From the NCBI RefSeq assembly GCF_054482595.1, contig NZ_CM137008.1: 64,000 bases of DNA; one strand, 5' to 3'. A program made the position numbers. Positions 53,301-56,300 of the stretch are shown here, one piece after another. Numbering within the stretch: the first letter of the stretch is position 1; each line of letters begins with the position of its first letter.

Positions 53301-56300
53301 GCTACGCCGAACGTGTTGTTGCAGGAGAAATTGTTGCTGGCGAATTTGTCCGCCTGGCCTGCCAGCGTTTTCTTGATGATCTGAAGTACGGCGAAGAGCG
53401 GGGGATTTATTTCAGTGAACCCCGTGCGCAGCACATCCTGAATTTCTACAAATTTGTGCCTCATGTAAAAGGGGCGCTGGCAGGCCAGCCCATTGAACTG
53501 ATGGACTGGCATGTATTTATCCTCATTAATATTTTTGGTTTTGTCATTCCGCTGGTGAATGAAGAGACCGGGGAAGTTGTCATGCGCAGCGATGGCAGCG
53601 GACGTCCGGTGATGGTGCGCCGGTTCCGGACGGCGTACAACGAAGTCGCCCGTAAAAACGCAAAATCAACTCTGTCATCGGGTATCGGCCTGTATATGAC
53701 GGGGGCAGATGGTGAAGGCGGTGCTGAGGTGTATTCAGCCGCCACCACGCGTGACCAGGCCAGAATTGTGTTTGAAGACGCCAAAAATATGGTCAGAAAA
53801 GCCCGGTCGACACTCGGGCGGTTGTTTGATTTCAACAAGCTGGCGATTTACCAGGAGCAGAGCGCATCAAAATTTGAACCGCTTTCCTCGGATGCAAACA
53901 ACCTGGATGGTCTGAACATCCACTGCGCCATTATTGATGAGCTGCATGCACATAAAACCCGCGACGTGTGGGACGTTCTGGAAACGGCAACCGGTGCTCG
54001 CCTGCAGTCCCTGTTATTTGGTATCACCACGGCAGGGTTTAACAAGGAAGGGATTTGTTACGAGCAGCGTGATTACGCCATCAAGGTATTGCGTGGCTAT
54101 AACAGCGATGTGGAGGGCGCTGTAAAAGACGACTCCTACTTTGCGATTATTTACACCCTCGATGAGGGAGATGATCCGTTTGATGAAACGGTCTGGCAGA
54201 AAGCGAATCCCGGCCTGGGCATCTGTAAACGCTGGGATGATCTGCGTCGCCTGGCGAAAAAAGCGAAAGAACAGGTCTCTGCGCGGGTGAATTTTTTTAC
54301 CAAACACATGAATGTGTGGGTAACAGCAGAGTCTGCCTGGATGGACATGATTAAGTGGGAGAAGTGCGAATACATTGCCCCACGACATGAGCTGAAAACG
54401 TATCCCATGTGGGTCGGCGTTGACCTTGCTCATAAGATTGATATCTGTGCGGCGGCAAAACTCTGGCGAACGGATAACGGGCATGTTCATGCCGATTTTA
54501 AATTCTGGCTTCCGGAAGGACGGCTGGAACGATGCTCGCGGCAGCAGGCAGAACTTTACCGGAAGTGGGCGGAGATGGATAAGCTGATTCTGACGGATGG
54601 TGATGTTATCGATCATGCTCAGATAAAAAGTGACTTACTGGAATGGATTGGTGGTGAAAACCTCAGGGAACTGGGATTTGACCCGTGGAGCGCGATGCAG
54701 TTCAGCCTGGCACTGGCTGAAGAAGGGATACCGCTGGTGGAGGTTCCGCAGACGGTTCGTAATCTGTCAGAGGCCATGAAGGAAACGGAATCACTGGTCT
54801 ATGCCGGGCGTTTCCATCACAGCAATCATCCGGTCATGAACTGGATGATGTCTAACGTTACGGTAAAACCGGACAAAAACGACAATATCTTCCCGAATAA
54901 ATCCACGCTGGAAGCCAAAATCGACGGCCCTGTTGCGATGTTTACAGCAATGAGCCGGATGCTGGTCAATGGTGGTGAACCGGAGCTGGATCTGTCTGAA
55001 CATCTGGTCAGCGTGGGCATCCGTTCGCTTTAACCGAGGTCATTATGTTTCTGATAATTCTCGCGCCACTGGTGGGCGTGCTGGGTGCGCTTTTGCTGGC
55101 GTATGGTGCCTGGCTGATTTATCCCCCGGCGGGTTTTGTTGTTGCCGGGGTGCTGTGCCTGTTCTGGTCGTGGCTGGTGGCGCGATATCTCGACCGAACA
55201 CAGCCGTCTGTCGGCGGAGGTAAATAGTGTTCTTTTCGGGATTATTTCAACGAAAAAGTGACGCGCCGGTGACCACGCCAGCAGAGCTGGCGGATGCCAT
55301 CGGGTTGTCTTACGACACCTATACCGGAAAGCAGATCAGCAGTCAGCGGGCCATGCGACTGACGGCGGTTTTTTCCTGCGTCAGAGTGCTGGCAGAGTCG
55401 GTCGGGATGTTGCCCTGCAATCTGTATCACCTGAACGGCAGCCTGAAACAGAGAGCCACCGGCGAACGTCTGCATAAGCTGATCTCCACGCATCCCAATG
55501 GCTATATGACGCCGCAGGAGTTCTGGGAGCTGGTGGTCACCTGTCTGTGCCTGAGGGGAAACTTTTACGCCTACAAAGTGAAAGCATTTGGCGAAGTGGC
55601 TGAACTGCTGCCCGTCGATCCCGGCTGTGTGGTACCGAAGCTTAACAGTCGCTGGGAGCCGGTCTATCAGGTCACATTCCCGGACGGTTCCACGGATGTA
55701 CTGAGCCAGGAGGATATCTGGCATGTGCGCACGCTGACGCTGGACGGTCTGGTGGGACTGAATCCCATCGCCTATGCCCGCGAGGCAATATCGCTGGCAG
55801 CAGCGACCGAAGAGCACGGGGCCAGACTGTTCAGCAATGGTGCGGTGACGTCCGGTGTGTTGCGTACAGAACAGACGCTGTCGGATCAGGCTTATGAGCG
55901 CCTGAAGAAAGATTTTGAGGAGCGTCACACCGGGCTTGGCAATGCTCACCGCCCGATGATCCTTGAGATGGGGCTGGACTGGAAGTCGATGGCGCTGAAC
56001 GCCGAGGACAGCCAGTTCCTGGAAACCCGCAAGTTTCAGCTTGAAGAAATCTGTCGTCTGTTCCGGGTGCCGTTGCACATGGTGCAGAACACCGATCGCG
56101 CCACCTTCAACAATATCGAAGAGCTGGGGCTGGGATTTATCAACTATTCACTGGTGCCGTATCTGACCCGCATCGAACAGCGGATCAACACCGGACTGGT
56201 ACGAAAAAGTAAGCAGGGCGTTTATTACGCCAAATTTAACGCCGGGGCGTTACTGCGCGGGGATATGAAGTCCCGTTTTGAAGCCTACGCCACCGGGATC

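Follow-up and report, generated by a model that had tools for sequence, protein, structure and literature searches.

In the late operon of an Escherichia coli prophage, a 60-codon open reading frame (ORF) separates the gene for the large terminase (terL) from the gene for the HK97-family portal protein. We analysed this small ORF within a 64,000-nucleotide (nt) stretch of contig NZ_CM137008.1 (NCBI RefSeq assembly GCF_054482595.1), here called the window. The small ORF is a real gene of the late operon; it is translated from a polycistronic late mRNA, and its stop codon overlaps the portal start. It travels with the portal gene rather than with terL, and every member of its family whose context was checked lies directly 5' of a portal gene of the PF04860 type. 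The gene in the window is an ordinary annotated prophage gene; of wider use is the linkage to the portal at the level of the family, and we found no description of this strict linkage in the literature searched. An earlier note, made from the sequence alone, had called a hydrophobic 60-amino-acid (aa) ORF at 55045-55227 between terL and portal, and these exact coordinates were confirmed; the ORF has an ATG start and a Shine-Dalgarno (SD) sequence.

A family fixed in place before the portal gene

A profile search of 1.84 billion cluster representatives (clusters at 50% identity) returned 697 clusters at E <= 1e-3, nearly all of 50-80 aa. Relatives were carried by at least 573 viral contigs, those listed all being at least 90% identical. 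By sequence profile the family is very large, consisting of PHROG 502 with PHROGs 7105 and 4810 as distant relatives. The window protein matched PHROG 502 ("membrane protein") at E 1.6e-27, with residues 1-55 aligned to profile positions 3-57 of 58, and has the two helices, the Y-x-P-A-G turn and the Gly11/14/21/35 pattern of that family. The pattern of the family as a whole reads D-x2-G-x2-G-x2-L-x-S-Y/F-G-A-W-L-I/V-Y-x-P-A-G-F/Y-I-V-x-G...A-R/K.

Five distant representatives were looked up. Four were readable (five loci) and all lay between TerL and portal; the fifth, on an 815-bp contig, was consistent with this. A degenerate DNA pattern (GAWL[IV][YF]xPAG), searched in one genome per species and undersampling the family, gave 31 loci, nine of them chance matches. 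The 22 true members came from Enterobacterales, Beta- and Alphaproteobacteria, Lysobacterales, metagenome-assembled genomes (MAGs) of Ruminococcaceae and a Planctomycetota MAG. A portal homologue was found directly 3' in all 21 of these species-level loci that reach that far and a terL homologue was found 5' in 18, the identity of these neighbours to the reference terL and portal falling as low as 24-35%. When the family hidden Markov model (HMM) was run against 1450 open frames from the six-frame translation of 18 phage loci, only the ORF just 5' of the portal gene was matched. Abutting or overlapping junctions of ORF and portal were also seen in distant relatives. Few small genes in HK97-type head modules keep their place as faithfully as this family, whose tie to the portal extends from E. 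coli prophages to Ruminococcaceae.

Comparison with individual phages separated the inheritance of the small ORF from that of terL. Nucleotide similarity to ST64B, SfI, SfII, SfIV and P27 starts at 55015, 19 nt before the terL stop, which makes the small ORF and the portal gene one inherited block. Relative to SfII, terL is 37-40% identical, the small ORF 92% and the portal 99%; relative to phage Evi the figures are 99%, 29% and 30%, and the Evi ORF overlaps both the terL stop and the start of its different portal gene. A portal gene could be read at 72 loci whose ORF was at least 90% identical. The portal was at least 95% identical at 69 of them, and their terL genes were of two unrelated kinds, with identity below 60% at 28 loci and of at least 85% at 44. 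Pseudomonas phage PAJU2 has the order terL, protease-capsid fusion, ORF004, ORF005 with two transmembrane (TM) segments, portal. Here the two-TM ORF has kept its place before the portal gene although terL is not adjacent.

The ORFs of PHROGs 7105 and 4810, D3 orf3, PAJU2 ORF005 and the ORF of Bacillus phage phi4I1 are alike in being two-TM hairpins of 50-72 aa in the slot 5' of a PF04860 portal gene, with overlaps with their neighbours, but their pairwise identity to the window protein is about 25% or undetectable. The 53-aa two-TM ORF of Evi (PHROG 7105; L003:3231-3392, LR597642) matched PHROG 502 at E 1.3e-6 and shares G11, G14, LL, G21 and G35 with the window protein; BLASTP gave no alignment between the two, and their relation is visible only via profiles. 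The family HMM missed D3 orf3 and the phi4I1 ORF, whose resemblance may be one of analogy and not of homology.

According to the earlier note, HK97-like phages usually have no gene in this slot. This is true of HK97 itself, which has no such gene and couples terL directly to portal, but the 697 clusters and a sample of phages speak against it as a rule. In 15 phage records taken evenly down a ranking of 2055 records with a homologous portal, a two-TM ORF lay directly 5' of the portal gene in six: phiKO2, Vibrio K326, Ralstonia YO005_1, Vibrio pVa-4, PAJU2 and phi4I1 (unannotated). The slot was empty in another six, and in the remaining three it was occupied by soluble, unrelated ORFs or by a toxin-antitoxin pair. 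Outside this sample, D3 orf3 is likewise a two-TM ORF before the portal. Unannotated two-TM ORFs were noticed in the terL-portal gap of phi4I1 (L127:1323-1484, KT967075; with an AGGAGG of its own and not detected by the family HMM), YO005_1 (L128:1238-1396) and SfIV (KC814930 2361-2480). Unrelated soluble small ORFs occupy the same slot in prophiGD36-2 and YYZ-2008. In Streptococcus phage Javan599 (L125, MK448819, 296-1416) the gap holds a Phd/Doc-type toxin-antitoxin pair and a 114-aa soluble ORF, suggesting that the same junction also serves as an insertion site for unrelated cargo.

Expression, selection and predicted topology

The gap between the terL stop (55033) and the start of the small ORF is 11 nt. 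At the other end, TAG and the portal GTG share one base (TAGTG), and the portal GGAGG lies within the last ORF codons, being carried by those of the final GGGK of the protein. A promoter scan gave two promoter-like sites against 4.1 expected by chance, and from the only nearby one, at 55030-55058, transcription would begin inside the small ORF. The scan found no + strand terminator at the small ORF. Because neither a promoter nor a terminator exceeds chance at the small ORF, and given the 11-nt gap and 1-nt overlap, we infer that it is expressed only with the late operon, in agreement with the late expression proposed in the earlier note. The gap to terL leaves no space for a separate promoter, and expression from the prophage is therefore unlikely.

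Conservation in related prophages had been proposed as a check on the gene, and its absence, or a lack of translation signals, as a reason to discard it. Neither ground for discarding it applied: the small ORF was intact in all 61 close loci that could be parsed, with the SD string TTTAACCGAGGTCATTATG unchanged in 58 and the portal junction AAATAGTGTTCT present in 59. These loci comprised 24 nucleotide haplotypes, and 13 of the 19 variable codons were purely synonymous. In comparisons with relatives from Enterobacter, Mangrovibacter, Klebsiella and Serratia, the ratio of nonsynonymous to synonymous substitution rates (dN/dS) of the membrane core (codons 1-47) was 0.10-0.19 at a dS of 0.9-1.7, that of the C-terminal tail was 0.5-1.6, and that of the portal was 0.04-0.07 in those of the pairs that allowed an estimate of dS. 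The membrane core is under purifying selection and the C-terminal tail is relaxed. At greater distance the small protein was 47-55% identical, the portal 34-40% and terL 32-48%. Across 117 cluster representatives, conservation was 97% for G14, 99% for G21, 100% for G35, 90% for P28, 78% for A29 and 76% for G30; G14, G21, G35, P28 and W23 were conserved at 81-100%. The RefSeq call, the PHROG 502 match, the intact loci and the low dN/dS of the core together place the gene far beyond a chance ORF.

The product has a grand average of hydropathy (GRAVY) of +1.26. Hydropathy outlined two hydrophobic segments, at about residues 2-25 and 30-46, linked by Y-P-P-A-G, and AlphaFold2, using a 39-sequence alignment, predicted helices at residues 2-25 and 27-52 with a mean predicted local distance difference test (pLDDT) score of 80.9. 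Both are consistent with the small two-helix protein described in the earlier note. Helix 1 carries a glycine face (G11/G14/G21) and an aromatic belt (Y20/W23/Y26) at its predicted periplasmic end. Across the 117 cluster representatives, the mean number of Lys and Arg residues was 1.9 in the N-terminal tail, 0.15 in the turn and 2.5 in the C-terminal tail; Lys and Arg in both tails and their rarity in the turn suggest the positive-inside signature of an N-in/C-in hairpin. From hydropathy, the positive-inside rule and AlphaFold2, the protein is predicted to be an inner-membrane hairpin with both ends in the cytoplasm. Four metagenomic relatives (P0149, P0184, P0186 and P0251) are natural tandem duplications of the hairpin, with 100-122 aa and four TM segments, a hint that the protein works as a dimer or a larger assembly. 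A sequence-profile search of the PDB with the family profile, solved phage particles included, gave no match at E <= 1, and Foldseek gave one meaningless V-ATPase match against the PDB and only uncharacterised hairpins against BFVD. At residues 19-23 (A-Y-G-A-W, 55099-55113), the family has S, A or T at position -3 in 83% and G at position -1 in 99%, just before A-W.

A proposed role in portal or head assembly and its alternatives

Taken as a whole, the observations are best explained if the small protein is a conserved, membrane-acting late accessory of the portal/head-assembly module and not a moron, with an aid to portal or prohead initiation resembling T4 gp40 as the best guess; we would give this explanation about an even chance. 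T4 requires a membrane protein that interacts with the portal or connector to start prohead assembly, and membrane-associated prohead assembly has not been shown for phages other than T4 (PMC3185693). The likeness to gp40 is that of a small phage-encoded inner-membrane protein tied to the portal, which here is predicted from sequence, and the tie to the portal is a genetic linkage. T4 gp40 exceeds the window protein in size and has only one anchor, and its gene does not adjoin gene 20. An indirect test of homology to gp40, by a PHROG scan at E <= 1, detected no similarity; the scan returned only PHROGs 502, 7105, 33409 and 12448, none of them annotated as a head assembly chaperone.

By analogy with T4, the hairpins would oligomerise in the inner membrane by packing against one another with their glycine faces. 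The oligomers would act as a membrane site or chaperone that concentrates the co-translated portal protein, and ring formation and prohead initiation would start at that site, as T4 gp40 does for the portal gp20; lineages such as HK97 would manage without the hairpin protein. This is the mechanism we favour, although on its own we regard it as rather doubtful. A broader proposal, that about a third to 40% of the sampled HK97-type lineages have a dedicated hairpin that oligomerises in the inner membrane and nucleates or organises portal-ring and prohead initiation, seems unlikely to us. If it were true, tailed phages would widely share an ancient and overlooked mode of assembly in which heads are initiated at the membrane; T4, with gp40-gp20, is the one case demonstrated so far. 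An action of the protein on portal or prohead initiation would open the tractable question of where and how HK97-like heads start assembling.

Several observations weigh against an assembly role or against the evidence assembled for it. HK97, mEp390, Gamma, phiSa2wa and others have the same portal family without the gene, which is thus not generally needed, and a comparison of portal N-termini between phages with and without the ORF revealed no difference. The conserved residues are all intramembrane or in the predicted periplasmic turn, and the cytoplasmic tails are short, variable, under relaxed selection and nearly absent in many relatives. Since the tails are the only parts able to touch the soluble portal, this argues against direct portal binding, for which the interface would be tiny. 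Membrane insertion is itself a prediction from hydropathy, charge and AlphaFold2. Moreover, S-Y-G followed by A-W fits the -3/-1 rule of signal peptidase I, by which helix 1 might be cleaved and the mature form might be a single-pass peptide. Profile E-values of hydrophobic proteins can be inflated, which the context checks mitigate for about 35 loci and not for all 697 clusters. Translational coupling, by making loss of the gene difficult, could be another cause of the tight linkage.

The earlier note had instead suggested a membrane-acting exclusion factor expressed late. On this reading the protein would be an inner-membrane superinfection-exclusion or immunity protein that blocks the entry of incoming phage DNA, like T4 Imm or the HK97 gp15 moron. 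Its size and two-TM architecture are typical of such proteins, its conserved intramembrane and periplasm-facing residues would suit binding to a host membrane protein, and PHROG files family 502 under "moron, auxiliary metabolic gene and host takeover", although this is the default category for "membrane protein". HK97 gp15 and T4 Imm belong to the morons or early genes, carry expression signals of their own and are patchily distributed. They resemble the window protein as small inner-membrane phage proteins; the window gene differs in having no signals of its own (the 11-nt gap leaves no room for them), in its fixed, portal-linked position and in showing no sequence similarity to them. Unlike patchy morons, the family keeps its place at the portal across phyla, from Enterobacteria to Ruminococcaceae, while terL and portal diverge to 25-35% identity, even though presence or absence does vary between lineages (6/15). 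Nothing accounts for an exclusion gene that tracks the portal instead of tail or injection genes. No Imm or Sie family was matched in Pfam or PHROGs, and PADLOC at E <= 1 returned nothing for the window protein and three relatives and, for P0124, only LeoBC at E 0.23, which is chance level. We therefore do not favour the exclusion reading and consider it improbable. We attach a comparably low probability to a protein that is made late and modulates a conserved machine of the host inner membrane, or that mildly perturbs the membrane or the proton motive force in the manner of a holin or antiholin, and so adjusts the timing of lysis, responses to membrane stress or the physiology of the host during assembly. 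In bacteria, many small membrane proteins act on larger ones by binding them, the residues conserved here lie within the membrane, and the tandem fusions suggest oligomers. The protein also has the predicted outline of the class II holins of the phage 21 S21 type (about 60-70 aa, two TM domains, N-in/C-in, basic C terminus). However, its gene lies about 2.8 kb downstream of the lysis cassette, which already includes a class II holin and lacks no component, and relatives occur beside different holin types (e.g. Phage_holin_3_5 in L089). It matches no holin family in Pfam or PHROGs at E <= 1, and its first TM segment is mostly Leu/Ile/Val and does not resemble a signal-arrest-release (SAR) segment. 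Such a modulator would also leave the portal linkage unexplained. Should the protein nevertheless prove to act in exclusion or in the timing of lysis, its age and its fixed position would be unusual for such a factor.

The remaining explanations concern the slot itself. The ORF could be mainly a cis-acting device whose peptide has little function, setting portal translation by coupling or, through co-translational insertion, holding the late mRNA at the membrane. As a rule its stop overlaps or abuts the portal start, the portal SD lies inside the ORF, and prophiGD36-2 and YYZ-2008 have unrelated soluble ORFs in the slot. But residue-specific conservation and a core dN/dS of 0.1-0.2 at saturated dS show selection beyond hydrophobicity or length, and HK97 couples terL straight to portal without such an ORF, making a mainly cis-acting role very unlikely. 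Even less probable is a pilot or ejection peptide that is packaged near the portal and inserted into the inner membrane of the next host for DNA entry. The gene adjoins the portal gene, a hydrophobic hairpin could form a channel, and portal-associated head proteins of SPP1 and Mu are encoded adjacent to the portal. In contrast, a 60-aa protein with this GRAVY should partition into the membrane of the producer cell, the family profile matched no PDB chain, and the PAJU2 record marks ORF003 and ORF010, not ORF005, as structural. Hardly credible, finally, and already contradicted at the level of sequence, is a lambda gpW-type head-tail joining protein, or the absence of any gene, the DNA serving as a terminator as annotated in SfII. 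The slot is the same as that of lambda W (order A-W-B, between terminase A and portal B) and GenBank records carry gpW labels. However, lambda gpW is a soluble head-completion protein, the window product is a predicted hydrophobic membrane hairpin, and no gpW family was matched in Pfam or PHROGs at E <= 1. The terminator is opposed by the lack of an RNA fold beyond shuffles, by the lack of a + strand terminator and by the strong conservation at the protein level.

Annotation and genomic surroundings

The window gene belongs to an already known and annotated prophage family whose function is uncharacterised. It is catalogued as RefSeq WP_000478567.1 ("hypothetical protein"), phiP27 L37 ("putative integral membrane protein"), ST64B Sb3, SfII_03, SfI "membrane protein" and phiKO2 gp3, and is 88-92% identical to P27 L37 and SfII_03. 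The segment is carried by 1380 of 5426 complete E. coli genomes, about a quarter. Pfam, NCBIfam and PADLOC have no model for the family, and no published function or discussion of the gene was found in the literature searched, which included the SfIV genome, an SPP1 revisit and a phage assembly review. The gene is often unannotated or mislabelled as gpW, and correction would be easy. The records ON470580 (L004:3246-3428), ON470584, ON470603 and PQ793804 name the ORF "head-tail joining protein W", which in view of the hydrophobic hairpin and the missing gpW match we regard as a positional guess or annotation error. RefSeq places the portal start at the coupled GTG, whereas in ON470580 the portal coding sequence (L004:3608-4669) begins 180 nt further downstream. 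The terminator annotated in SfII inside the ORF (nt 9-58) was rejected, its RNA folding no better than shuffles (z -0.8 and -0.2). ORF and portal sequence 95-99% identical to the E. coli type also occurs in two records with a Gram-positive host assignment, OR844959 ("Enterococcus phage Efm 3-10", 1764 bp) and JAEWTL010000102 (L116, "Bacillota bacterium MAG"), probably through contamination or mis-binning.

The 14 kb around the small ORF are 99.3-99.7% identical to the best-matching E. coli chromosomes, at least 80% of this stretch is present in 216 complete genomes, and RefSeq annotates the same genes at the same offsets in E. coli SMS-3-5. After Rz/Rz1 the order is HNH endonuclease, P27-family small terminase, terL, small ORF and portal, followed 3' by genes for an HK97-family prohead protease, the major capsid protein, a connector and the tail. 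The coordinates of these features are collected in Table 1.

Table 1. Features of the small ORF, its product and the surrounding late region (window positions).
Feature	Position	Strand	Basis or remark
Small ORF (60 codons + TAG, ATG start)	55045..55227	+	Read from sequence; RefSeq has the same coordinates
Shine-Dalgarno GAGG of small ORF, 5 nt 5' of ATG	55036..55039	+	Sequence
Coupling junction: portal SD GGAGG 55216-55220, ORF stop TAG 55225-55227, portal start GTG 55227-55229	55216..55229	+	Sequence
Large terminase terL, upstream neighbour	53276..55033	+	PF03354 + PF20441, E 4e-52
HK97-family portal, downstream neighbour, translationally coupled	55227..56468	+	PF04860, E 5e-108; RefSeq annotation
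Mosaic joint, 19 nt before terL stop	55015	no strand	Nucleotide matches start at query position 215/216
Predicted transmembrane helix 1, residues 2-25	55048..55119	+	Hydropathy, AlphaFold2
Tight turn Y-P-P-A-G, residues 26-30, predicted periplasmic	55120..55134	+	Most conserved stretch of the family
Predicted transmembrane helix 2, residues 31-46, with invariant G35	55135..55182	+	Hydropathy, AlphaFold2, conservation
Short basic tail, residues 47-60, predicted cytoplasmic	55183..55224	+	R47 conserved; remainder variable
P27-family small terminase	52794-53276
HNH endonuclease	52295-52645
Four tandem phage tRNA genes just 5' of the lysis cassette	50019-50328
Lysis cassette: class II holin, YdfR-family ORF, lysozyme, Rz/Rz1	50621-52252
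Class II (phage 21 S-like) holin	50621-50836

The HNH endonuclease directly 5' of the P27-family small terminase (52295-53276) is an arrangement known from HK97 gp74-type cos packaging, and the same HNH/Terminase_4 pair was found upstream in most distant relatives of the small ORF. In the lysis cassette, a 116-aa YdfR-family ORF (50841-51191) is wedged between holin and endolysin, the lysozyme (51255-51788) has an N-terminal hydrophobic SAR-like segment, and an Rz1-like ORF (52005-52190) is embedded in Rz. The tRNA genes comprise one with a CAT anticodon (Met according to ARAGORN, Ile according to RefSeq), Lys-TTT, Thr-TGT and Gly-TCC. A further small ORF of 62 aa, hydrophilic and annotated as hypothetical, lies at 58368-58556 between the major capsid and head-tail connector genes.

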